NCBI GenBank assembly: GCA_050998805.1
Contig: JBPCPV010000015.1
Coordinates: forward strand, 145,423-209,422
Source: Chloroflexia bacterium
Lineage (GTDB): Bacteria; Chloroflexota; Chloroflexia; QHBQ01; JAICKM01
Length of the DNA stretch: 64,000 bases
Direction: 5' to 3'
Shown here: positions 752 to 64,000 of the stretch, piece after piece
Position numbering within the stretch: position 1 is the first letter of the stretch
How the letters are laid out: every line of letters starts with the position of its first letter
Translations under genes and position numbers: made by a program
Notes under the pieces: generated by a model
What the model saw: only the letters and a program-made list of their open reading frames with translations
Database searches by the model: none
Told to the model about the DNA's origin: nothing

Positions 752-1585
752 CTAGCTCCGCAGCCCCGCGACAGCCGACCGCATCCGCTCGGCGAAGGCG
801 GCGTCGGTGATCGAGCCGAGGTTGATCTCGACGTTCGCGATCGCCCCGTCGCGCCCCGCGCGGGCCAAGAGTTCGGCCACGTAGGCGTCGCTGGCGACGT
901 TCGGGTTCGCCTTCGCCCGCGCGACCCCCGCCAGCCCGACCACCTCATCTGCCGCCCGCGCCACCCTCAGCGGCACCTCGCACGCCCCCTGCAAGGCCGC
1001 CTGGATCGCCGCCCGACGCGCCTCCTTCTCCCCGTCACTCCCCTTCGGCAGCTTGTAGGCCGCGCCCACCGCGTCGTATGCCTGGGTGTCCTCATCCACG
1101 GCTACGGCCAGCTCGGCCTGTAGCTTGCTCGCCCGCGCCAGCACGTCGCGGAGATCCTCCTCGACTGCCGCGAACTTCTCACGCCCCACCGTGAGGTTGC
1201 AGGCCATCGCCACCATCGCAGCACCCATCGCGGCGGCGAGCGCGCTACAACTCCCCCCGCCGGGCGTCGGCGACGGCGAGGCCAGCGTGTCGAGGTACTC
1301 TTTGACGCTCAGATCGATCAGGTTGCTCATAGTCGGCTCCTTCGAGTGGGCGCGGGCGAGGGCCTGCTTGGCGGCATGGCTCCGGCGGCGCAACCGGTAT
1401 TCCCTTTGCCTGGCCGCGCGCCCGTCCGCCGCTTCCTCGTAGTAGGCGAGGCTCACCGGCAGCCTCGCCCGCGTGTACCGCGCCCCACGGCCCCGCTCAT
1501 GCGCCGCCACCCGCCGCGCCAGGTCGGTCGTCCAGCCCGTATAGTATGTGCCATCGGCGCAAAGCAGCAGGTAGACGTAAGGCAT
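752..1585 (-). CDS. GIY-YIG nuclease-like domain fused in-frame to a formiminotransferase-cyclodeaminase/cyclohydrolase (FTCD_C-like) domain
   Basis: 277 aa ORF. The N-terminal ~86 aa ([32 protein letters not shown]...) match the UPF0213/GIY-YIG fold. The remainder ([49 protein letters not shown]...) is the cyclodeaminase/cyclohydrolase signature. No stop between the two parts. Confidence 0.65.
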
Positions 1586-2101: not shown

Positions 2102-3451
2102 GTGTCCCTCCGTAGCAGGCGGTAAGCGGTAGGTAGGCAGTTGTCAGTGGTCGGTACGTAGCTGGACGATGGCGATGTTCCCCACCTCCGCAGTATAACA
2201 TAAGCCCGGCAGGGGCGGCTATTGAAACCAACATAGATGGTTCGTAGTGAGCACTTCAGTGCTTCGTCGCAAGCCATGAGTCATCGAGGGCGAAGCCGCT
2301 CCCCGACAGACACTGCCCCGTGAGCCGTCAATAATCACCCGCCCGTACCGCTGGCGTCTCGCCGGCCCGTGTATCCCGCCGTACCGCCTACCAACCACTA
2401 ACCACCCACCACCAACCACTCGTCTGTGGGAGAGCGGCTCCGCCCTCGATTAGCTCACCTTCCGTCTGTGGGAGAGTCGCTCTGCGCTCGATTTGCTTAC
2501 AGCAGCCCCCTCCGACAGACACAGCCTCATACCATCCGCACTCCGCACTCCGCACTCCGCACTCAAAACATTCGTGTATTCGTGGCCCGTATTCGTGGAC
2601 GGCTTCGCAGCTACCCGCACTCCGCACTTGCCCCCCAAACCGCGTCAGATGCCTCTAGAACGCCCGTTCGCCTCCATACCGCTATTAGACTCTCCCGGCA
2701 TCCAGCCCGCTCCCGGCCATTCTAGAACGCCCCTCCCAGCTCACGTACCGCCGGCGTCTCGGCGGCCCCGCGCCGTACCGCCGGCGTCTCGGCGGCCTGT
2801 GTGCCACTGTCCAATCCACCGCCCCGTATGCGGGTGGCCCCGCCCCGCCTCCACTGTCATTCTGACCCCACCCACTGTCATTCTGACCCTACCCACTGTC
2901 ATTCTGAGCGAAGCGAAGAATCTCTGCTGACCACCGACCACTGACCACTGATGCCGCCTAGGTCTTTCGGAGTATCTTTGGACCAAAATCGCCAAAAAGC
3001 TCCCAAATCTGGCAGTAAATGACCCCTGAAATGGATATTAAAAGTGAGGGGGTAAAAATAGCGGGGCGAAAACCCCCTATTCCGTGCCTGAAAAAGAAAT
3101 AGCGCGGCCCCGCGCCGGGACGCGTGCCGGTGGATTTTGGCCGGTTTCCCAAAAATACTCCGATCGGAGTATCTTTCAGAATGAGGAGGAAAGTAGTGAG
3201 TAATCTCGTGCCTACTCCTACAGCCTACTCGCAAAAGGTTATCTAATATTAGCCGCCAGGCACGAAATATCAGCCGGAGGTCGCCCGCCGTGCCTGACGC
3301 TGCCCCTGAAAGCTGCTGGGTTTCTGATAATCGCTGGTAAGCGTTCAGCATTGCGTGTGCAGCTGGCGGCAGAAAGTCAGGAAACGTGATAGAATAGGAG
3401 CATAAAACGCTGCGTGTCGAAATCGCAGCCTACGGGAGGAGAATTGCCGGA
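2102..3451. repeat. Large repeat-rich non-coding region (~1.35 kb) containing several repeat families
   Basis: Contents: heptamer arrays (2378-2405; CGCACTC x4 at 2536-2564); three copies of CGTACCGC(C/T)GGCGTCTCG(G/C)CGGCC (2345-2370, 2745-2768, 2776-2800); direct repeat cgtctgtgggagagNcgctcNgcNctcgat x2 (2420-2500); gtattcgtgg x2 (2577-2600); three tandem cactgtcattctgac units running into a full copy of ACTGTCATTCTGAGCGAAGCGAAGAATC (2852-2923); ccaccgaccactgaccactg (2931-2953); perfect 18-nt palindrome atactccgatcggagtat (3155-3172). No ORF with recognisable product. Confidence 0.8.
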
Positions 3452-27497: not shown

Positions 27498-27526
27498 CAC
27501 TGTCATTCTGAGCGCAGCGAAGAATC
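27498..27526. repeat. Copy of dispersed element ACTGTCATTCTGAGCGCAGCGAAGAATC
   Basis: cactgtcattctgagcgcagcgaagaatc in the divergent intergenic region. Other copies at 2852-2923 and 35544-35623. Confidence 0.8.
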
Positions 27527-27541
27527 CCTGGAGGTTAGAAC

Positions 27542-28636
27542 TTGGGCGCTGTAGAGGAGCTTGCCGGGGTGATACGCGAGAGGATCCGGGCTGCCGGCGA
27601 GCGGATCACTTTCGCCGAATACATGGACCTGGCACTCTACCACCCGACCTACGGCTACTATAGCGCCGGTAGGGTCGCGCTCGGCCGCGGCGGCGACTTC
27701 ACGACCTCGCCTGAGGTGGACCCGGCCTTTGGCGCGCTGCTCGCCGAGTTCGCGCGCCGGTGCGATGAGAAGTTGGGCCATCCCGCGCGCTTTCTGCTGG
27801 CCGAGCATGGCGGCGGCTCCGGGCGGCTGATGCGTGACATGCTCGACGCGCTCCGCGAGACCCAGCCTGCCCTCTACTCCCGCGCCGACGCCGTGTTGGT
27901 GGAGCGAAGCGAGGCACTGCGCTCCCGCCAGCAGGCGTTGCTCGCGGAGGCGGGCCACGACCGAGCACGCTGGGCCGACGCGGCTGTAGGCACCGGCCTA
28001 GTCCTCAGCAACGAGTTGCTTGATGCCTTCGCTGTCCACCGGCTGCTCGCCGAAGAGGACGGTCTGCGGGAGATATACGTTGAGGTGGACGCCGACGGAC
28101 GCTTCGTGGAGACCATCGGCCCGCCCTCCGACCCGGCTCTCGCGGCCTATTTCGAGGACGCGACGGTGACGCCTCCCGACCGGCCATGCGAGGTGAACCT
28201 GGCGGCCCCTGCCTGGCTGCGCTCGGTTGCCTCCGACCTGGAGCGGGGCTTCGTGCTGACGATAGACTACGGCGATAGCGCGGCCCGCCTCTACAGCGAT
28301 CTGCGGCCCGAAGGCACCCTCTTGTGTTATAGTAATGGGCGGGTGACGGACGACCCCTACGGCGCGCCCGGTACACAGGATATGACCGCGCATGTGGACT
28401 TCACGACGCTCGAGCGTGTAGGCCGCGCCGCAGGGCTGCAAACAGTCGTAGCCACACGCCAGATGGAGTTTTTGGTGGACCTCGGCATCGGCGAACGGAT
28501 CGCCGCCCTTAGCGCCACGCCGCCCGAGTCGCGCGAGGCAGCCCGCGAGATGCTCGCCCAGCGCGCCCACCTCTTCCGCCTGATCGACCCCGACGGCCTG
28601 GGCCGCTTCCATGTGCTTGTGATGCTGAAATGCTGA
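27542..28636 (+). CDS. MidA/NDUFAF7-family SAM-dependent methyltransferase (DUF185)
   Basis: ...ITFAEYMDLALYHPTYGYYSAGRVALGRGGDFTTSPEV...LLAEHGGGSGRLMRD... matches the MidA signature. Confidence 0.75.
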   Translation: MGAVEELAGVIRERIRAAGERITFAEYMDLALYHPTYGYYSAGRVALGRGGDFTTSPEVDPAFGALLAEFARRCDEKLGHPARFLLAEHGGGSGRLMRDMLDALRETQPALYSRADAVLVERSEALRSRQQALLAEAGHDRARWADAAVGTGLVLSNELLDAFAVHRLLAEEDGLREIYVEVDADGRFVETIGPPSDPALAAYFEDATVTPPDRPCEVNLAAPAWLRSVASDLERGFVLTIDYGDSAARLYSDLRPEGTLLCYSNGRVTDDPYGAPGTQDMTAHVDFTTLERVGRAAGLQTVVATRQMEFLVDLGIGERIAALSATPPESREAAREMLAQRAHLFRLIDPDGLGRFHVLVMLKC

Positions 28637-30890: not shown

Positions 30891-32462
30891 ATGACAGACG
30901 ACATGCTCAACAGCGTGATACATGCGCCCGACTTCCCGCCCGGCCTCGACTGGCTGAACACGCCCGACCACAGGCCGCTCACCCTCGGCGACCTCAAGGG
31001 CAAGCTGGTGCTGCTCGACTTCTGGACCTATGGCTGAATCAACTGCATCCACATCCTGCCGCAGTTGCGGCGGCTCGAAGAAAAGTACCCCGACCGGCTC
31101 GCGGTCGTCGGCGTCCACGCCGGCAAGTACACCGCCGAGCGGTCCACGTCCAACATCCGCGATGCCGTGCTGCGGCTCGGGATCGACCACCCTGTCGTTA
31201 ACGACCGCCAGTTTCGCATCTGGAAGGCTTACGCGGTGAGCGCCTGGCCGACGGTCGTGATAGTGGGGCCAAACGGCTACTACCTCGGCACGAACCCCGG
31301 CGAGATCACATTCGAGGATTTCGACCCGGTCATCGCCTCTGCGCTCGCCCACTTTGAGCAGGCCGGGATGATCAGCGCTGCCCCCCTGCCGCTCCACCCG
31401 GAGCACTTGGACGAGCCTGAACGCCCGCTCCGCTACCCCGGTAAGGTGCTGGCTGTGGCCGGAAGCGACGGCACGCCTGACCGCCTCTTCATCGCCGACA
31501 GCGACCACGCCCGCGTGCTCGGGGCGCGCCTCTCGGTGGACGGTCGCGCCGCCGAAGTCGAGTGGGTCGCCGGCTCCGGCGCTCCGGGCGCAGACGACGG
31601 GCCGTTCGAGCAGGCCGGCTTCAACCGCCCCCAGGGGATGTCGCTCGTCGCGGACACTCTCTACATCGCCGACAGCGAAAACCATACCCTGCGCGCGCTA
31701 GACACCGGCAAACGGACCGTGCGGACTATCGCGGGCACAGGGCAGATCGGCAGGTTCGGCGCGGCGGGCGGCGCGGCCCTGAGCACCCCGCTCAACTCAC
31801 CGTGGGATCTCGCCTGGACCGGCAACCGGCTCTACATCGCCATGGCCGGCTACCACCAGCTCTGGGTCTACGACCCCGCCGGGACCGTCGCGCCCTTCGC
31901 CGGCACCGGCCGCGAGGAGCTGGCCGATGGCCGGCTCTGGTCGCCGAGCGTCCTCAAGGCGCGCGTCCTGGACGACCTGCGGGGCTACGCGAGCCTCGCC
32001 CAGCCCACCGGCATCGTCGCCGACGGCGAGCGGCTCTACTTCACCTGTAGCGAAGCCCAGGCTGTGCGCTCTGTCAGCACGGGTGGCGAGAACAATGTAA
32101 GCACGTTCGTCGGCACCGGGCTGTTCGACTTCGGTGACAAAGACGGGCGTGGCGATGCCGTGCGCCTGCAACACCCCTTCGGCCTCGCTTTTCACGAGGG
32201 GCGGCTGCTCGTGGCCGACACCTACAACAGCAAGATCAAGCGGCTCGACCCGGCGACGCGGGAGGCGGCATCCTGGCTCGGCAACGGCGAGCGCGGCCTG
32301 GTGGACGGCCCCGGCGCTGATGCGCGCTTCAACGAGCCGGAGGGCCTGAGTGTGGCCGGAAATCGGCTCTATATCGCCGACACGAACAACCACGCGATCC
32401 GCGTCGTGGACCTCACAGACCCGGCCGGCAACGTCTCTACCCTCGAGCTGCGTGGCCTCTAG
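30891..32462 (+). CDS. Thioredoxin-like domain + NHL-repeat protein with an in-frame TGA (31035-31037) at the first Cys position of the CxxC motif; candidate selenoprotein, or else a pseudogene
   Basis: Strong SD (AAAGGAGAAACCG) then ATG at 30891. It encodes MTDDMLNSVIHAPDFPPGLDWLNTPDHRPLTLGDLKGKLVLLDFWTYG-TGA-INCIHILPQLRRLEEKYPDRLAVVGVHAGK..., continuing in the same frame into the track ORF 31065-32462 (NHL repeats). Reading TGA as U restores the redoxin motif WTYGUINC. Confidence 0.5.
31056..31073 (+). promoter_or_regulatory. Stem-loop 18 nt downstream of the in-frame UGA (possible bacterial SECIS-like element)
   Basis: ctgccgca-gt-tgcggcgg: 8 bp stem including one G-U pair, with G and U in the apical loop. 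Confidence 0.25.
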
Positions 32463-32481
32463 CCTCCGGCGTCCCGATTGG

Positions 32482-34638
32482 GTGCTTGCGGCCATCTTGC
32501 TCGCGGCGCTGCTGCTGCGGCTGCTCTACCCGCAGGCCGTCGGCCTGCCGGAGCGGACGCCGATGCACGGCTTCGTGATAGACGAGCAGGAGTACTACGG
32601 CGCGGCCTCCGTGCTCGCCGACGGGCGCGGCCTCCACTTCTACGACACCTTCACCTGGACCCGTACCCCCGCATACGTCCTGCTGGTCGGCTCGCTCTTT
32701 GTCCTGCTCGGTCGGGACACCGGCCCGGTGTTCATATTGCAGGCGCTGCTCTCGACGCTCACCCTCTGGGGCCTGGCGGCGTTGGCCGGGCGAGAGGCCG
32801 CCCGCGCCCCCGCGCTCGGCCTCTCGCCGCGCTCTGCCATGCGCTGGGCAGCTCTGACAGGCGCGGTCTGGCTCCCCTTCACTCTCTTCTCCAACCTCCT
32901 CGTGAGCGAAACACTCTTCCTGCTGCTGATCGTCGGCGCGTTCCTGCTGCTGGAGAGATGGGCCGACTCAACCCACCCGTCCCTCCTCCTCGCCGCCGGT
33001 ATCCTCCTCGGCCTAGCCGCGCTCACCCGCTCGACGACGCTCGCGTTCTTGCCGCTCGCGGCCGGCTGGGCGGGCTGGGTCGCGTGGCGGGCGGGTGCGG
33101 TGCGGCGCTGGGCCGTCGCTCCGGTCGCTCTGCTGGTTGCCGCAGGACTGACTTTGCTGCCTGCCGTAGTCGCGAACTATGCCGACTACGGTCGGCTGAT
33201 CATCGGCGACACGACCGGTGGCTACAACCTCTGGCTTGCGGCTAACGGCGTCCGCGACGCCGAGCGTCTGTCGGCAGACCTCGCCGCCATCCCCAACCCC
33301 GCCGACAAGCAGAGCTACGCCTACAGCCAGGCGTTCGAGGAGATCGCCGCCCGCCCCGCCGACTTCGTGGGCAAGGGCCTGAAGGAGTCGCTCGACCTCT
33401 GGAAGATCAACTTCAGCTCTGAGGAGCGGCAGGTGCGCGGCTTCGCTGAGGGCCGCGTGCCCGCCCTCCACCTCTGGAGCCTCTTCGTCGGAGAGGATCT
33501 GCTTTACGTGATCATCGTGCCGCTCGCCCTGCTCGGCCTCGCAGCCGCGCCACCCCACCCGATCAAACTCCTGCTCGCCCTCTGGGCACTGACATGGGTC
33601 GTGATGGCCTTCGTCTTCTTCGCGGTCACCCGCTTCCGCTTCCCCGTAGTCTCTCTACTGCTCCCCTGGGTGCCCCTCGGCCTTGCCACCCTCCTCCGCC
33701 TCTCCTCGCGCCTCTCCGCACCCGTACCGCCGGCGTCCCGCCGTCCCCCGGCACCCGTCAAAACTCAAAACTCGCCCCTGGTGCTCGCCGCGCTCTTCCT
33801 GCTCGCCGTCGCCCCCGACCTGCCGAACGACCTCTCGGTGACCCTGCTCGGCGCGCAGAAGTGGGAGGCGCAAGCGCCCTACCGCGATGCCGCGCAAAAC
33901 CCCGACGCGGTCGAGGCCCTTACTCTGCTGGCGAAGGCCGACCAGTCGGTGCCGGACACCCTTTTCGCCCGCGACGCCGCCGAGATCCGGACAGCTCAGG
34001 ACGATGCCGGCCTGCTGGCGGTGGAGGCGCGCCCCGAGGTTTCGCTTGCCCGCGGCAGCCCACTGGCCGAACGCTTTGAGCCGTTCCTCCTCAGCGGGGA
34101 GATCGCCCGTCGCCTCGGGCAAGAAAGCGCCTCCCGCACCGTCTTCGGCTCGCGCCAGATACACGACGCCGACGCCGAGGCCGTGGACTGGGCCTGGCAG
34201 TTCTTGCACCCCGACCCCCAAGCGCGGCTCGATGTCGGAGGCGACCTCGATTTCGGCGCGTTGCGCGGCTTCCACAAGAGCGAAGCTGTCGGGCAAGGGT
34301 CGGGCCGGGTAACATACCGCTGGAGTGGGCCGGAGAGCACGATGCGGATACAAAGCCCTAGCGAGACTCACGCGCTTGTCATCCGCTGGAGCGGCGCTCG
34401 CCCGCCCGGCGTCCCGCCAGCTGTTGTGACCGCGCGCGTTACTTACGATGCCGGTCTGCACTACGAGCACAGCTTCACCCTGCCTACCACCGACACCTGG
34501 CGGGAAGACACGATCTGGAACTTCACGCTGAAAGGCGGTGCCGGGGCGGCCTTGCACATCACCACGAACACCTTCGTGCCCGGCGGCTTCGACCCCCGCG
34601 TGCTCGGTGTGCGCGTGGATTGGGTGGAGTTGCGTTGA
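32482..34638 (+). CDS. GT-C fold membrane glycosyltransferase, PMT_2/ArnT-like (GT39/GT83-like) with a C-terminal soluble domain
   Basis: First TM LAAILLAALLLRLLYP followed by the ...VIDEQEYYGAASVL... DE-motif loop. ~13 TM helices, then a ~300 aa extracytoplasmic C-terminal region. Start placed at the first in-frame GTG after the upstream stop. The track ORF starts at 32350, inside the previous gene. Confidence 0.55.
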   Translation: MLAAILLAALLLRLLYPQAVGLPERTPMHGFVIDEQEYYGAASVLADGRGLHFYDTFTWTRTPAYVLLVGSLFVLLGRDTGPVFILQALLSTLTLWGLAALAGREAARAPALGLSPRSAMRWAALTGAVWLPFTLFSNLLVSETLFLLLIVGAFLLLERWADSTHPSLLLAAGILLGLAALTRSTTLAFLPLAAGWAGWVAWRAGAVRRWAVAPVALLVAAGLTLLPAVVANYADYGRLIIGDTTGGYNLWLAANGVRDAERLSADLAAIPNPADKQSYAYSQAFEEIAARPADFVGKGLKESLDLWKINFSSEERQVRGFAEGRVPALHLWSLFVGEDLLYVIIVPLALLGLAAAPPHPIKLLLALWALTWVVMAFVFFAVTRFRFPVVSLLLPWVPLGLATLLRLSSRLSAPVPPASRRPPAPVKTQNSPLVLAALFLLAVAPDLPNDLSVTLLGAQKWEAQAPYRDAAQNPDAVEALTLLAKADQSVPDTLFARDAAEIRTAQDDAGLLAVEARPEVSLARGSPLAERFEPFLLSGEIARRLGQESASRTVFGSRQIHDADAEAVDWAWQFLHPDPQARLDVGGDLDFGALRGFHKSEAVGQGSGRVTYRWSGPESTMRIQSPSETHALVIRWSGARPPGVPPAVVTARVTYDAGLHYEHSFTLPTTDTWREDTIWNFTLKGGAGAALHITTNTFVPGGFDPRVLGVRVDWVELR

Positions 34639-36221
34639 CGCACGCTGACCCTGCGCCCCGCCGCACGTTCCTGCCCGCGCGGGGCGATTGGGCCGGTTGG
34701 CTGCTGCTCGGCGCACTCGCGTTGCTCGCCGCCCTGCTGCTGCTCAAGCTGCTCGACACGGCGACGATCATGCGCGCGCTCTTCAACTGGCCCTTCCAGC
34801 ACGACGAGTCGGAGAGCATGATCGTCTCCGAAACCCTCCTCCTCGACCACGGCACGAACATCTATGCCAATCTGACCCCACAGCAGTTCATCGCCGCGCC
34901 TTATCCGCCGTTATATTACCTGCTCAACTGGCCCTTCATCCACCTCCTCGGCCCCACGTTCAAGGCCGGGCGGGCGATCACTATAGCAGCGACCTCCGGT
35001 GCCGGACTGTTGATCTACGCGCTCGGCCTCCGCCTCATGCGCGACCCCCTGGCGGCGCTGCTTGCCGCGCTGACCTGGGCCGCGCTCGATATGGTCGCGT
35101 TCTGGGGGTCGCTCGTCAAGCCCGACATGCTCTCTGTCACCTTCGGGCTGGCCGGCCTGCTCTGGGTGATACGCGCCGCCGAGGCGCGCTGGCCGCTCTG
35201 GGGCGCGCTGCCATTCTTCTGGGCCGCCTTCTACAGCAAGCAGACGGCGATTGCCGCCGGGGTCGCCGCCTGTGCGTGGCTCCTGCTCCGTAACCGGCGC
35301 ACCGGCGTCGCCTTCGCCGCCGCCTACGCCGCAGGCGCGGCCGTCGGCTACCTCCTGCTCGATTGGCTGACGGCAGGCGGCTACTTCTACCATGAGTTTA
35401 CCCTCCACGACCTCCCCTGGGACTCCGACCGCTTCCTGCTGCGCCTCACCGACTGGTTTTCGACCTACTGGCCCCTATTGCTCCCCGGCGTGGTTGGCAT
35501 CGCGGTGTCTCTCATCTCGCGCCGTCCCTCACCCCCACCCCCAACTGTCATTCCGAGCGCATCCACGGTCATTCTGAGCGCAGCGAAGAATCTCGGCTCC
35601 GCACCTACTGTCATTCTGATCGCCGCCTACCTCGCTATGGGCATCGTCGTCTCGAGCGGCGCGGGCACGCTCGGCGGCAACCACAATCACCTGCTCGACC
35701 TGACTGCCGCCTGCTGCATCGGGGTCGCGCCTGCCGTCGCCTTGCTCCGGCGCGCGGGTCGGCCTGCGGCGAGGTTGCTGGGGGCCGTAGCGGTGCTGGC
35801 GGTCTGCACCCAGGTGCCGGAGCTTTACCGCATCCCTCACTGGCTCGGCCACGATCTCCGGCTACCGACCGCGCTGCGCGCCGAGGGGATGGCGAACGTC
35901 GCGCAGTACACCAGCAACACGCCCGGTGCCGTCTACTCGACCGACCTCAGCCTACTGCTGGCGACAGGCAAGTGGCTGCCCCACCTCTGGACGACCGACC
36001 CCTACACCCAGACCCACGCGGCAGGTTACCGCCGCTGGGACGAGTCCGCGCTGCTCCAGGCGGTGCGCGAACGCCGCTTCGCTCTCGTTGTCGTCCCCTA
36101 CTCGCTCGAAGACCCTGCGCTCGACGCCACCGGCGACCTCTCGCCAAACATGGTTAAGGCGCTACAGGAGTCCTACCGGCTCGACCAGCGGAATGTGCTC
36201 TATATCTACAAGCCGAAGTGA
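34620..36221 (+). CDS. Second GT-C-like polytopic membrane protein (putative glycosyltransferase) carrying an in-frame copy of the dispersed repeat element
   Basis: TTG start overlapping the previous gene's end. ...NWPFQHDESESMIVSETLLLDHG... (DE-type loop motif) and multiple TM helices. Residues ...PTVIPSASTVILSAAKNLGSAPTVILIAAY... are encoded by 35544-35623, which is the repeat actgtcattc(c/t)gagcgcagcgaagaatc plus flanking half-copies. Confidence 0.5.
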   Translation: MGGVALTHADPAPRRTFLPARGDWAGWLLLGALALLAALLLLKLLDTATIMRALFNWPFQHDESESMIVSETLLLDHGTNIYANLTPQQFIAAPYPPLYYLLNWPFIHLLGPTFKAGRAITIAATSGAGLLIYALGLRLMRDPLAALLAALTWAALDMVAFWGSLVKPDMLSVTFGLAGLLWVIRAAEARWPLWGALPFFWAAFYSKQTAIAAGVAACAWLLLRNRRTGVAFAAAYAAGAAVGYLLLDWLTAGGYFYHEFTLHDLPWDSDRFLLRLTDWFSTYWPLLLPGVVGIAVSLISRRPSPPPPTVIPSASTVILSAAKNLGSAPTVILIAAYLAMGIVVSSGAGTLGGNHNHLLDLTAACCIGVAPAVALLRRAGRPAARLLGAVAVLAVCTQVPELYRIPHWLGHDLRLPTALRAEGMANVAQYTSNTPGAVYSTDLSLLLATGKWLPHLWTTDPYTQTHAAGYRRWDESALLQAVRERRFALVVVPYSLEDPALDATGDLSPNMVKALQESYRLDQRNVLYIYKPK

Positions 36222-45970: not shown

Positions 45971-46935
45971 TTGATAGTCCCTCCTGTGCCAGCTAGATAG
46001 ATCGCGTGTCTCGCCTGCTCTTTGCGGCCTATTATAGCACGCCGGGGCGTTTATTGGTAGAAGGCGGCGGATTCTTACTCCGTGCGTCGAGCGCAGAGCG
46101 ACTCTCCCACAGACGATAGCTTTGCTTCGAGCTACGGCTCTCTGAGCTTGGGTATCTGAAGAACCGTGCCTGAGAACTGATAAAGTAGGAAAAACGCGGG
46201 TATAGGCACGGGCCGGGCATAATTATCAGATTTCGTGCCTGGCGTGAGCTGATATTTCGCGGCTCTCTATCAGTAGGAAGTGGTTAGTGGTTAGTGGTTG
46301 GTAGTCAGGAGGTTGTCCCGGCGATCCACGAGTGAAGCCGTGTCTTGCAGCTGTAGTTGGCGGCAGTAAGTGAATGAGTAACGTTTTGTGTATATGCTGA
46401 CGATAAGATTGTGTAAATAGAAGAAGACGGCACTCGATGTTACAGAGCCATCGGGGGGGAGGACTTTGCTCGCTATTTTTACCCTCTCACTTGTAATATC
46501 CATTTCAGGGGGCATTTACTGCCAGATTTTGGGGCTTGGGGAGGGAATCGGGGCAAAGATACTCCGAAAGATCTAGACGATTGCGGATTTCGGAGTGCGG
46601 ATTGCGGATTGAGGGCGGCGAGGTGGGCGGATCTCGAAGCTCAACGCGGGTTGGCGTTGTTGCTGTGAAAGTGGGTCTTGTGAACGGATATGAGGGCAAG
46701 AGTGGCCTGACGTAGCAGTTTTGGTATCGGAATCGGGTCGATTTTACTTCAAGAAGCAAGTATGACGGTCGTTGAGACGGATGTTGGTATGTAACAACAG
46801 GAATGGCGCGTCTGGGTGAGCTGGGGTTGTCGGGGAGGAGGCTTGTGGGGTTGGGTGGGGTGGAGATACGAGTAATTACCGGGCCTTAGAGCTTGCATCC
46901 ACTTAGGGGTTTTGTTATAATAGTCGTGTCCACTT
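45971..46935. repeat. Repeat-rich non-coding region (~0.95 kb) upstream of tRNA-Ser
   Basis: Contains (GTGGTTA)-type heptamers (46279-46303) and the ATTGCGG/GGAGTGC heptamers (46578-46614). Segments 46470-46534 and 46083-46120 are reverse-complement matches to 2996-3066 and 2463-2490. Confidence 0.75.
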
Positions 46936-58592: not shown

Positions 58593-59279
58593 GTGATGCA
58601 ACTCGAACTCCGCGACTACTTCAATGTGCTGGTCAAACGCTGGTGGCTGATACTGCTGGTGGCGGCGGGTGCTGCCGCCGGGGGCTACGGCTACAGCAAG
58701 CTACAGACGCCGATCTACCAGGCGGATGTGAAGATACAGGCGTTCCCTAGCCGCGCGGATAACGGCCTGATCGAGTACCTGGTCAAGAACCTGCCGAGCT
58801 ATACCGCGGGCCTCGACTCGCACGAGTTCGTGAACTCTGTGCTGACCGACTCGGCGAACCGTGGGCACCTCGACGACCTGACGGCGGACGACGTGCTCGG
58901 CAAGCTAAAGGTGCAAGCCCAGCCCGACAATCACATCATAGACATGACGGTGGACGACCCGTCGGCGCAGAAGGCCGCCGACATCGCCAATGCGCTCGCC
59001 TCGGCCTACGCGGACCAGCAGAACGCGCTCGCGGAAAAGAGCCAGAGCGCCGACAAGATCTTCCTGCAACAGCTGGACACCGCCAGGCCGCCACCGCGCC
59101 CCTACCAGCCGCGCACGCTGCTTAACACGGGCGCCGCAGCACTGCTTGGCCTAGTCCTCGGCCTGATACTGGCCTTTATCCTGGAGTTCACCGACACCAG
59201 TCTGAAGACCAGTGAGGATGTGCAACGCTACCTCGCTCTGAACACCATCGGCCTGATACCGGCGCGGAAGCGGGCGTAG
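58593..59279 (+). CDS. Wzz/chain-length-determinant-like protein, tandem paralog
   Basis: MMQLELRDYFNVLVKRWWLILLVAAGAAAGGYGY... plus a C-terminal TM helix. Confidence 0.65.
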   Translation: MMQLELRDYFNVLVKRWWLILLVAAGAAAGGYGYSKLQTPIYQADVKIQAFPSRADNGLIEYLVKNLPSYTAGLDSHEFVNSVLTDSANRGHLDDLTADDVLGKLKVQAQPDNHIIDMTVDDPSAQKAADIANALASAYADQQNALAEKSQSADKIFLQQLDTARPPPRPYQPRTLLNTGAAALLGLVLGLILAFILEFTDTSLKTSEDVQRYLALNTIGLIPARKRA

Positions 59280-59315
59280 TGGTCGGTGGTTAGTGGTTAG
59301 TGCGTAGTGCGTAAT
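59274..59315. repeat. Six tandem heptamers GCGTAGT-GGTCGGT-GGTTAGT-GGTTAGT-GCGTAGT-GCGTAAT overlapping the Wzz stop codon
   Basis: Seen directly. The gene's TAG stop lies inside the first heptamer. Confidence 0.8.
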
Positions 59316-62750: not shown

Positions 62751-63083
62751 GAGCGCAACTCCTCTTTGGTCGGGTATTATGTCGGGAGCCGGGCGCGTGC
62801 GCCCTCCTCTGTCGCCCACATTATACGATAGACGGCAGCGGCGCGCAACCGCTTGACATCGCCCCCGAAAATTGCTATAGTTGGACTAAGATTAACTGCA
62901 TAGCCAGAAAGACTGTGAACAGCAGGAGTAGTCGCGCAGGCGAGCAGGCAGAGATCCGGCGGTGGTGAAAGCCCGGATGCAGCGCGCACGGCGAATGGAG
63001 CTGGGAGTCGCACCCCGAACGGCCCGCGCGGCCCAGTAGGCGGTGCCGGAGACTCTTCCGTTATCAGGAGCCGGGCATCGGAC

Positions 63084-63108
63084 GTAGTGCGTAGTGCGTA
63101 GTGCGTAA
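63084..63108. repeat. (GTAGTGC)3 heptamer tandem repeat
   Basis: gtagtgcgtagtgcgtagtgcgtaa seen directly. Confidence 0.8.
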
Positions 63109-63323: not shown

Positions 63324-64000
63324 ATGAGAGTTAAAGAGAGGGAGACGGCGGTTGGGGCGATTGCGCCCGACCTGGAGACGGTGCGGAGACTGGCGGAGGG
63401 CGAGCATGGAGGCGGGGCGGGAGGCGGGGCAGTGGTGCCTCTGGTGCGGCGGCTATCTGCGGACCTGGACACGCCGGTATCGGCGTACTTGAAGCTGACG
63501 GGCGGAGAGACCGACGAGGGATACAGCTTCTTGCTGGAGAGCGTGCATGGGGGGGAGCATTTAAGCCGCTACAGCTTCCTGGGCACGGCCCCGACCCGCC
63601 TGTTGCGGTGTGAGCAGGGCGCGGGCAACCCGCTCACGGCGCTGGCGGATGAGGCGCGGGCCTGGCGCGTCGTGCTGCCTGAGGAGCAGGGGCGGCCGTT
63701 GCCGCCGTTCATTGGCGGCGCGGTGGGCTTCGTCGGCTATGAGACGGCGGGCACGTTCGAGCCGGTGGCTGCCGCCGCCAACGATCCCCACGGCCTGCCG
63801 CTCGCGCTCTTCGGCATATATGACACGGTGGTAGCGTTCGACCACGCCTACGGCATCATGCAGGTGATAACCCTACTGCCCCTCAGCGGCGACATCAGCG
63901 CCTCCTACGCCGCAGCCGCCGCCCGGATCGACGCGGTATGCGTGCGCTTGGCCGGACCGCTGCCGGTGGTCAGTGGTCAGTGGTCGGTGGTCGGTGGTCA
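63324..64000 (+). CDS. trpE: Anthranilate synthase component I (or ADC synthase), N-terminal part; continues beyond window end
   Basis: MRVKERETAVGAIAPDLETVRRLAEGEHG...VSAYLKLTGGETDEGYSFLLESVHGGEHLSRYSFLGTAPTRLL...FIGGAVGFVGYETAGTFEP.... RBS GGAGGAG. The (CAGTGGT)2(CGGTGGT)2 heptamers at 63968-64000 lie inside the reading frame. Not in the ORF track because it runs off the window edge. Confidence 0.8.
   Translation, partial: MRVKERETAVGAIAPDLETVRRLAEGEHGGGAGGGAVVPLVRRLSADLDTPVSAYLKLTGGETDEGYSFLLESVHGGEHLSRYSFLGTAPTRLLRCEQGAGNPLTALADEARAWRVVLPEEQGRPLPPFIGGAVGFVGYETAGTFEPVAAAANDPHGLPLALFGIYDTVVAFDHAYGIMQVITLLPLSGDISASYAAAAARIDAVCVRLAGPLPVVSGQWSVVGG

Follow-up and report, generated by a model that had tools for sequence, protein, structure and literature searches.

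A miniature palindromic DNA repeat in the loop-coding DNA of an intact GT39 glycosyltransferase-like gene of a Chloroflexia bacterium

The 64,000-nucleotide (nt) stretch of Chloroflexia DNA analyzed here (contig JBPCPV010000015.1, positions 145,423–209,422; referred to as the window) contains a miniature palindromic repeat, and a cluster of its copies, comprising a half-unit, a full unit, and a further half-unit, occupies positions 35544–35622 inside a membrane glycosyltransferase-like gene. The gene is intact, and the cluster lies in the DNA for a hypervariable connector between two predicted transmembrane helices. The stem of the element covaries, and the same unit recurs across many phyla and phage contigs. 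We consider it probable that the element is a selfish DNA hairpin, similar to repetitive extragenic palindromic (REP) sequences and REPINs, that is tolerated in this loop. More tentatively, the copy cluster may belong to an essentially undescribed, self-propagating family of DNA mini-hairpins, built on d(GCGNAGC) and tandem G·A pairs and present in many phyla and phages.

Repeat copies in the window and in the GT39 gene

The full unit in the window is written as (T)GTCATTCTGAGCGNAGCGAAGAATC(TC), and its 28-mer form as ACTGTCATTCTGAGCG[A/C]AGCGAAGAATC. The 28-mer occurs exactly at 2895–2922 and 27499–27526 and with one mismatch at 35565–35592, always on the plus strand, and 100 dinucleotide-preserving shuffles of the window give an expectation of 0 matches. 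The two exact copies confirm an earlier note on this DNA, which had described a dispersed repeat that is also intergenic. Half-units of the form GTCATTCYGA are located at 2856, 2877, 35547, and 35610. A structure-aware scan of the window detected exactly three full hairpins and four half-units, all on the plus strand, and no inverted doublets of the element. The host gene and the repeat copies are as follows.

34620–36221, plus strand: host gene, an intact ORF (open reading frame) for a 533-residue polytopic glycosyltransferase-like protein of the GT39/PMT_2 (GT-C) type, based on Pfam, homologues, synteny, and an AlphaFold2 model
35544–35561, plus strand: first partial unit, ACTGTCATTCCGAGCGCA, the 5′ half up to the loop with the TTCC stem variant; codes for T309–A314
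35565–35594, plus strand: full unit, ACGGTCATTCTGAGCGCAGCGAAGAATCTC; codes for T316–L325 (TVILSAAKNL)
35607–35622, plus strand: third unit, partial, ACTGTCATTCTGATCG; codes for T330–A335, the start of the next transmembrane helix
2853–2924, plus strand: intergenic array of half-units at 2853–2868 and 2874–2889 (21-nt period) and a full unit at 2895–2924, followed by GACCACY heptamers
27498–27528, plus strand: a full unit on its own, located in a divergent spacer of 139 nt and directly 5′ of a GGAGG ribosome-binding site

The copy at 2895 resides in a gene-free, repeat-rich spacer of 1.65 kb that extends from a DinB-family gene to an enoyl-CoA hydratase gene, and the ORFs across 2853–2924 have no Pfam matches. 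Truncated units do precede the full one in this array, as had been noted, but they number two and not three. The copy at 27499 lies 16 nt before the TTG start of a Methyltransf_28 gene (27542–28636).

Within the host ORF, the units start at 35544, 35565, and 35607, with spacings of 21 and 42 nt. Since 35544 − 34620 = 924 = 3 × 308, the three units share one codon phase, in agreement with the previous description of one full and two partial copies that keep the frame. They code for T309–A335 (...TVIPSASTVILSAAKNLGSAPTVILIA...), and the peptide read across the cluster includes TVILSAAKNLGSAPTVILIAAY. The first partial unit precedes the full unit by 21 nt, as is typical of the family. In the full unit, positions 35571–35575 pair with 35587–35591 to form the stem, positions 35576–35577 and 35585–35586 provide the tandem G·A pairs, and the mini-hairpin GCGCAGC spans 35578–35584.

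The ORF product matches Pfam PF13231 (PMT_2) with E = 9e-9 and 36.1 bits, against a cut-off of 26.1, and is 100% identical to the NCBI entry 'MAG: glycosyltransferase family 39 protein [Chloroflexia bacterium]' (MAG, metagenome-assembled genome). Twenty-eight homologues with 42–61% identity align with the GT39 protein from end to end. In this alignment, invariant residues flank the repeat segment on both sides, including DESE at 62–65 and GTLGGNHNH at 349–357. The C-terminal 190 residues align in frame with all 28 homologues, and the downstream invariants T350, G352, G353, N356, and H357 are retained, on to P532. Three orthologues (L289, L290, and L291; L numbers denote the collected loci) are syntenic: a protein of about 740–760 residues is encoded upstream in all of them, and the downstream genes in common are a 46-residue ORF, ABATE/zf-CGNR (uncalled in L290), Trm112p, and GT4. 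The end-to-end alignment, the invariants on both sides, and the synteny thus indicate that the GT39 gene is intact and in frame.

An AlphaFold2 model of the protein is multi-helical, with a predicted template-modelling score (pTM) of 0.84. Residues 300–327 form a low-confidence connector, with a predicted local distance difference test score (pLDDT) of about 59–65, which links the helices at 269–299 and 328–349; the first turn of the latter helix is encoded by the third half-unit. L333, contributed by this half-unit, aligns with a nearly invariant Leu, and the other overlapped positions stay hydrophobic. The model thereby bears out the prediction of a polytopic protein with the repeat in a loop or transmembrane region. 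The corresponding loops of the orthologues are arginine-rich, which, by the positive-inside rule, suggests that the connector with the repeat residues is cytoplasmic.

The element is a mini-hairpin with a covarying stem

The unit of about 28 nt reads (T)GTCA, four variable stem bases, GA–GC–GNA–GC–GA, four complementary bases, and TC(TC). As a single strand, it folds into a 5-bp stem, formed by the A of GTCA, the variable bases, and the T of TC, followed by G·A/A·G, the G:C and C:G pairs, and a GNA triloop. Two sheared G·A pairs and a d(GCGNAGC)-type mini-hairpin therefore cap the 5-bp stem. Among 337 copies, conservation extends only from position −1 (T, 86%) to +26 (TC), and the flank at −9 to −2 is pyrimidine-rich.

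The earlier proposal that the repeat is palindromic is now backed by compensatory changes in the stem. Of the 203 copies obtained with a search pattern that did not constrain the four inner stem positions of either side, 188 have perfectly complementary stem halves, and 11 complementary combinations were found: TTCT/AGAA, TCCT/AGGA, TTCC/GGAA, TCCC/GGGA, TGCT/AGCA, CCCT/AGGG, TACT/AGTA, TTTC/GAAA, TGTT/AACA, CTCT/AGAG, and CCCC/GGGG. For the 44 distinct cores, 94% of the cells are paired, compared with only 15–53% in slid registers, and 50 cells carry double changes versus 13.1 ± 4.6 in shuffles (0/500). The central loop base is free (A72/C67/G39/T25 in the 203 copies), while the G and A that flank it are invariant. 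In a cyanobacterial variant, GAGTGAAACGA, the inner C:G pair is replaced by T:A. When only GTCATTCTGAG...CGAAGAATC is held fixed, the apex is CGNAG in about two-thirds of the copies, and the remaining apices are usually other small hairpins (GCTTTAGC, GGCCGCAGCC, or nested GGAGCGAAGCGAC). Conservation therefore resides in the (T)GTCA foot, the stem, and the tandem G·A with its G:C pair. Counts of G·T versus A·C mismatches failed as an indicator of the functional strand, with too few imperfect stems.

d(GCGNAGC), with any N, is an extraordinarily stable DNA mini-hairpin (PMC13037366), and it serves as a structural motif of phage origins, ssi signals, and N4 promoters (Hirao and co-workers; reviewed in PMC13037366). 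The element has precisely GCGNAGC at its apex, where N varies freely and G and A do not change; the known motif is a structural one, not a dispersed repeat family.

Distribution and organization of the family

The exact 25-mer GTCATTCTGAGCGNAGCGAAGAATC is present in 92 stretches of IMG/VR viral contigs, with GC contents of 0.32–0.69 and unrelated flanks, and in GTDB species genomes, where at least 120 stretches belonging to more than 15 phyla carry it. Among the matches listed are Chloroflexota, Acidobacteriota, Nitrospirota, Nitrospinota, Bacteroidota, Ignavibacteria, Chlorobiales, Planctomycetota, Verrucomicrobiota, Omnitrophota, Gracilibacteria, Saccharimonadales, Firmicutes, Desulfobacterota, Alpha- and Betaproteobacteria, Fibrobacter, and Abditibacteria. 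By our estimate, fewer than 0.01 matches would arise by chance in approximately 6 × 10^11 bases. Plasmid copies occur in cultured Planktothrix, Calothrix, Oscillatoria, Hymenobacter, Phocaeicola, and Granulicella. Cultured phages yielded one good match only; the cultured-phage and plasmid databases hold few copies, and annotated context is scarce there.

The copies are found mainly in intergenic spacers, as singlets, inverted doublets of fixed orientation, tandem arrays, and runs of 5′ half-units. Neighboring copies on opposite strands follow the order plus then minus, 32–110 nt apart with the TGTC ends outward, with two exceptions. For such doublets, the predicted fold is a long hairpin (−33 kcal/mol, z = −10.5), and in one Acidobacteriota locus (L208) they fill three successive spacers between ordinary genes. 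Within 120 nt of full copies, 86 half-units were counted upstream and 21 downstream, with a modal spacing of 21–24 nt, and arrays of two to four half-units precede full copies in unrelated contigs. The half-unit arrays of the window are therefore a trait of the family. Half-units end at or within the 5′ side of the hairpin apex, and these break points suggest polymerase stalling or slippage at the apex. Nested-looking composites, with one unit in the apex of another, are also present (e.g., L227, 6165–6250).

Two further loci contain related arrangements. Downstream of the BREX gene pglX on the Planktothrix agardhii plasmid NZ_LR882951.1 (L369, 480–790), three tandem doublets with the core GAGTGAAACGA are preceded by a half-unit, and the second arm of each doublet has an enlarged apex. 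In Escherichia phage RB43 (L292), the spacer between rnh and gene 55 holds several hairpins of the type [stem]-GA-NN-GNA-NN-GA-[stem] at 595–640 and 725–765, including ATTCTGAGCGAAGCGAAGGA and GACACGAACGTAGTGAGTGTC; this spacer is conserved in the RB43/RB16/Lw1/Miller group. Separately, the Terriglobia locus L227, which carries the element, contains two inverted Acido-Lenti-1 RNA motifs (RF01687, above the gathering score) at 2362–2409 and 2490–2536 that are unrelated in sequence to the element.

Action at the level of DNA or RNA

An unlikely alternative is that the element works primarily in RNA and in cis: as an intergenic hairpin, it would terminate, process, or stabilize transcripts or modulate the downstream ribosome-binding site, and the copies in genes would be incidental. 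Consistent with this, many copies are located just before a ribosome-binding site and start codon, including the one at 27499, and solo copies are enriched in convergent spacers (34, versus 10 divergent). The 5′ flank, pyrimidine-rich as described above, is sometimes anti-Shine-Dalgarno-like. The best sub-threshold Rfam match of a doublet is RF02901 (AaHKsRNA41, Aggregatibacter small RNA 41), at 42 bits against a gathering score of 97. Moreover, one orthologous phage spacer, located between genes ending ...YQGDDT and starting MTKSKIEQG, is occupied by the element itself, by a doublet, by a form of the element whose apex is enlarged, or by unrelated AT-rich palindromes, as though any hairpin would do. 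None of the 11 related phage contigs has an empty spacer at this site.

Phage contigs with the YQGDDT/MTKSKIEQG spacer (IMG/VR): L012, L036, L038, L063, L069, L072, L084, L017, L092, L105, and L008

Against a role in RNA, the copies show no preference for sense or antisense. Relative to flanking genes, 30 solo copies are sense and 31 antisense, and inside ORFs 27 copies lie on the same strand and 34 on the opposite strand; these and the following strand statistics depend on crude gene calls and on GC skew over 5–15 kb only. No downstream U/T tract is evident by eye in the listed flanks, and copies are tolerated inside essential phage genes. At the gathering threshold, Rfam gave 0 matches in the window and none overlapping the element in 18 related loci. 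The invariant G and A, the free center, and the 3-nt loop closed by C:G conform to the rule of the DNA mini-hairpin. Solo copies within one locus share a strand in 28 cases against 9 (p = 0.003), and the GNA strand coincides with the locally C-rich strand in 132 of 205 loci (p = 5e-5). The strand and spacer statistics, together with the DNA-type mini-hairpin, indirectly favor a strand-asymmetric process at the DNA level over an RNA function. Hammerhead and other ribozyme cores, K-turns, attC, oriT nic sites, and the terminal inverted repeats of insertion sequences were also considered, by eye, and were set aside; the required motifs were absent or fell in the covarying stem.

Consequences for the protein

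The earlier note left two outcomes for the gene, a tolerated peptide insertion or recent inactivation. The latter, whether as a pseudogene or as a non-functional protein, is very improbable. The third half-unit does overlap the start of a conserved transmembrane helix, and the hairpin of the full copy is still perfect, as would be compatible with a young event. However, there is no stop codon, frameshift, or truncation; the protein aligns with its syntenic orthologues through to the C-terminus, with every downstream invariant up to P532 in place; the positions overlapped by the half-unit are hydrophobic, L333 being the conserved Leu; and the AlphaFold2 model has high confidence both before and after the segment. 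The loops of the orthologues are, in addition, equally long and equally unconserved. Tolerance is thus the favored outcome, and the presence of some 27 'junk'-derived residues in a tolerant loop of a membrane glycosyltransferase is relevant to both annotation and the interpretation of structures.

Comparison of this loop with the nearest relatives, which are 56–62% identical, revealed loops of about equal length and unrelated sequence. The alignment with orthologues that had been proposed thus shows that they lack the repeat residues, but it does not show a net insertion, and the term insertion for the GT39 gene would draw on the identity of the repeat. In L289 (3850–4053), the same loop contains the inverted heptamer arrays (GATTGCG)x4...(AATCCGC)x4, which code for IADCGLRI...NPQSAIRNPQS, and similar heptamer repeats are intergenic in the window (e.g., 46579–46609). 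L290 (3814–4083) and L291 (3823–3996) carry other, unrelated inserts there, that of L290 being of the 'SPRLGGEGLGES' type. A second repeat family of the window, the GC-rich and palindromic CGTACCGCCGGCGTCTCGGCGGCC, is intergenic at 2344–2367, 2744–2767, and 2774–2797, and it recurs with three mismatches, in frame, at 33723–33746, in a loop of the membrane protein encoded by the adjacent upstream gene (ORF 32350–34638); no match to it is expected by chance. At this site, the protein has eight residues more than its three syntenic orthologues. From the inserts of L289–L291 and from CGTACCGCCGGCGTCTCGGCGGCC, it follows that intergenic-type repeats repeatedly occupy the loop-coding DNA of both genes.

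In-frame copies are not rare in the family. The element lies exactly between Terminase_6N and Terminase_6C in the large terminase subunits of two phages (L075 and L130), between the AAA lid and HTH_8 of a sigma-54 activator (L190), where its inverted partner follows, and in the linker of a PBECR1 protein of a phage with 32% GC (L034); all these domain assignments are confirmed by Pfam. The frame-preserving event in the GT39 gene had been called uncommon and compared with the Rickettsia palindromic elements (RPEs); the comparison is apt as an analogy, whereas the supposed rarity does not hold for this family. Among the in-protein copies, at least four reading frames and both orientations are represented: VILSEAKNL, HSERSEES, RSLASLGMT, and ILRxAQND. 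The peptide is therefore not the conserved level, as different proteins read different frames and strands. Likewise, the VILSE/AAKNL translation pointed out previously is indeed constant, but it is merely constant DNA read in one frame.

It is accordingly highly unlikely that the encoded peptide itself was selected, for instance because proteins recruited it as a linker module that is flexible or hydrophobic. Such a role would fit both the in-frame copies that recur in the linkers of several unrelated proteins and the VIL-rich reading, which suits membrane-proximal segments. Besides the variety of frames and orientations, most copies are intergenic, and conservation resides in the DNA hairpin, as seen from the stem covariation, and not in the peptide. 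In practical terms, the element generates recurrent spurious ORFs (VILSEAKNL, ILRFAQND, etc.) in addition to real in-frame insertions into proteins.

A coincidental similarity, or native loop DNA as the source of the intergenic copies, has nothing in its favor beyond the missing empty-site comparison and is effectively refuted by the zero chance expectation, the same 25-mer in hundreds of unrelated contexts across phyla, and the orthologue loops, which do not share the repeat residues.

Comparison with known repeats

REP sequences, bacterial interspersed mosaic elements (BIMEs), and REPINs of proteobacteria are mobilized by RAYT transposases of the Y1/HUH type, and their repertoire comprises singlets, doublets, tandem arrays, and nested clusters (Bertels & Rainey 2011, PMC3116915). 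The element resembles them as an imperfect palindrome of about 25–30 nt whose hairpin foot carries four conserved, unpaired 5′ nucleotides; it also occurs as inverted doublets of fixed orientation in related loci and as clusters that look as if made by insertion next to or into existing copies. In contrast, its 5′ motif is TGTC, within (T)GTCA, and not the GTAG of REPs, runs of 5′ half-units are prominent, and although most copies are in spacers, verified copies also exist inside genes, including the GT39 copy. No RAYT was seen in the inspected clusters or in the scan of approximately 3 Mb of loci. The lack of GTAG and the absence of a RAYT from these loci place the element outside the REP/RAYT family as defined.

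RPEs are about 100–150 bp long and restricted to Rickettsia. As with RPEs, a palindromic repeat lies in frame inside genes and adds a peptide without destroying the protein. Judged by the description of RPEs, the element differs in its 28-nt length, its mostly intergenic location, its occurrence in many phyla and phage contigs, and its Chloroflexia host.

A structural parallel is offered by the Bpu and Bpu-like elements of Cycas and Ginkgo mitochondria, which are short interspersed repeats with about 500 copies (Chaw et al. 2008, as described in PMC8297867). The 36-nt Cycas consensus is AAGGTTATCCCTTTCCTGAGCGTAGCGAAGGGAAGG, with AAGG terminal direct repeats. This consensus shares the identical 15-mer CTGAGCGTAGCGAAG with N = T copies of the element and is predicted to adopt the same fold of stem, GA, GC-GNA-GC, GA, and stem. 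The Bpu stem is 8 bp long and of another sequence, the GTCA 5′ motif is lacking, and the host is a plant organelle. No AAGG repeats flank the element in the 337 copies. The Bpu core CCTGAGCGTAGCGAAGG contains a Bpu10I site, whereas TCTGAGC, as found in the window copies, does not constitute such a site. The Ginkgo variant fits the hairpin register less cleanly than the Cycas consensus, and the Cycas-to-Ginkgo differences, considered as a compensatory pair, were dropped after folding. Bpu and the element may share a common descent or may have converged on a stable hairpin.

The sub-threshold match of the doublet to RF02901 reflects a long hairpin with the arms ..CUGAGC..CGAAGCAUC.., which resembles the doublet; the apex and stem sequences differ, and the score below the gathering threshold means that the doublet is not a member. 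In the full-text literature searched, the sequence and peptides of the element were found only in the Cycas Bpu paper and in unrelated primer coincidences. The element is thus none of REP/RAYT as defined, RPE, or Bpu, and works like them as a miniature palindromic interspersed repeat. The family appears undescribed for bacteria in the sources searched.

Proposed origin of the cluster and evidence against it

On the selfish-hairpin interpretation, which we regard as probable, a cluster of copies would have come to lie in the DNA for the hypervariable connector, and the gene would have survived because the net length of the cluster keeps the frame and the frame that is read has no stop codon. 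The approximately 27 repeat-coded residues would have no function of their own and would be neutral, the element acting at the DNA level. It may spread via single-stranded hairpin intermediates, mobilized either by an HUH/Y1-type enzyme in trans or through polymerase stalling and template switching at the mini-hairpin.

Several observations weigh against this scheme. No mobilizing gene lies beside the inspected clusters. No pair of a filled and an empty site was recovered when joined flanks were searched with BLAST against approximately 2.4 Mb of loci, and variable occupancy was seen in only one phage spacer; mobility is therefore putative, as are any target site and insertion boundaries. In that spacer, moreover, the alternation of the element, its doublet, and an unrelated palindrome could mean that a hairpin is functionally wanted. 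Given that the closest orthologues have equally long loops, simple insertion fits no better than replacement or rapid loop turnover does. In more than 15 phyla the unit hardly changes in sequence, unlike classical REP-RAYT systems, which diverge between genera and whose units are specific to a genus or to one RAYT. GC skew over 5–15 kb is a noisy proxy for replication direction. Finally, a single unit folds at only −1.9 kcal/mol (z = +0.5) with standard nearest-neighbor parameters, and because of this low energy, the claim of stability rests on the published mini-hairpin data and not on prediction.

Candidate movers and controls were also examined. A transposon bounded by two copies was ruled out in L195 and L205, where the copies lie between groEL and groES and between other ordinary genes. 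No association with RAYT/TnpA was seen in the loci covered: the genes between the L208 doublets are ordinary, and a crude scan of approximately 3 Mb of collected loci detected no IS200-like motif. No empty site was found among the Planktothrix plasmids. The paralogous region at 46040–46660 was ruled out as an empty-site control, as it shares only the downstream 109-nt block described below.

The wider interest lies in the family, whose 28-nt unit has sharp boundaries, varies very little between phyla and phage contigs, is absent from Rfam, and has its apex in common with a plant-mitochondrial element. If the family is mobile, the mover of a small conserved unit across distant hosts becomes testable and could reveal a new hairpin-specific DNA transaction. 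Should the more tentative notion of a self-propagating family be correct, the near-invariant unit would imply either very promiscuous mobilizing machinery or reliance on a process common to all hosts, for example a hairpin-recognizing enzyme of replication or repair, and the Bpu elements would be its relatives or convergent users.

Other features of the window

Tandem heptanucleotide repeats (TCCGCAC, GACCACY, AGTGGTT, and CGTAGTG) occupy intergenic positions 2535–2562, 2929–2951, 46279–46299, 59277–59314, 63083–63108, and 63965–64000, and one heptamer array begins directly 3′ of the element, at 2925. We take these repeats to be reminiscent of the cyanobacterial short tandemly repeated repetitive (STRR) sequences. 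A 109-nt AT-rich block, present in a GC-rich genome, occurs twice in inverted orientation with 83% identity, at 2955–3063 (plus strand) and 46471–46579 (minus strand), and each copy adjoins heptamer repeats. The block reads ...TCTTTCGGAGTATCTTTGG...AAATCTGGCAGTAAATG.CCCCTGAAATGGATATTA.AAGTGAG.GGGTAAAAATAGC and could be a promoter or a small RNA gene. The ORF at 752–1585 (minus strand) encodes an unusual fusion of an N-terminal GIY-YIG nuclease domain (residues 1–71) with a C-terminal FTCD_C (formiminotransferase-cyclodeaminase) domain.

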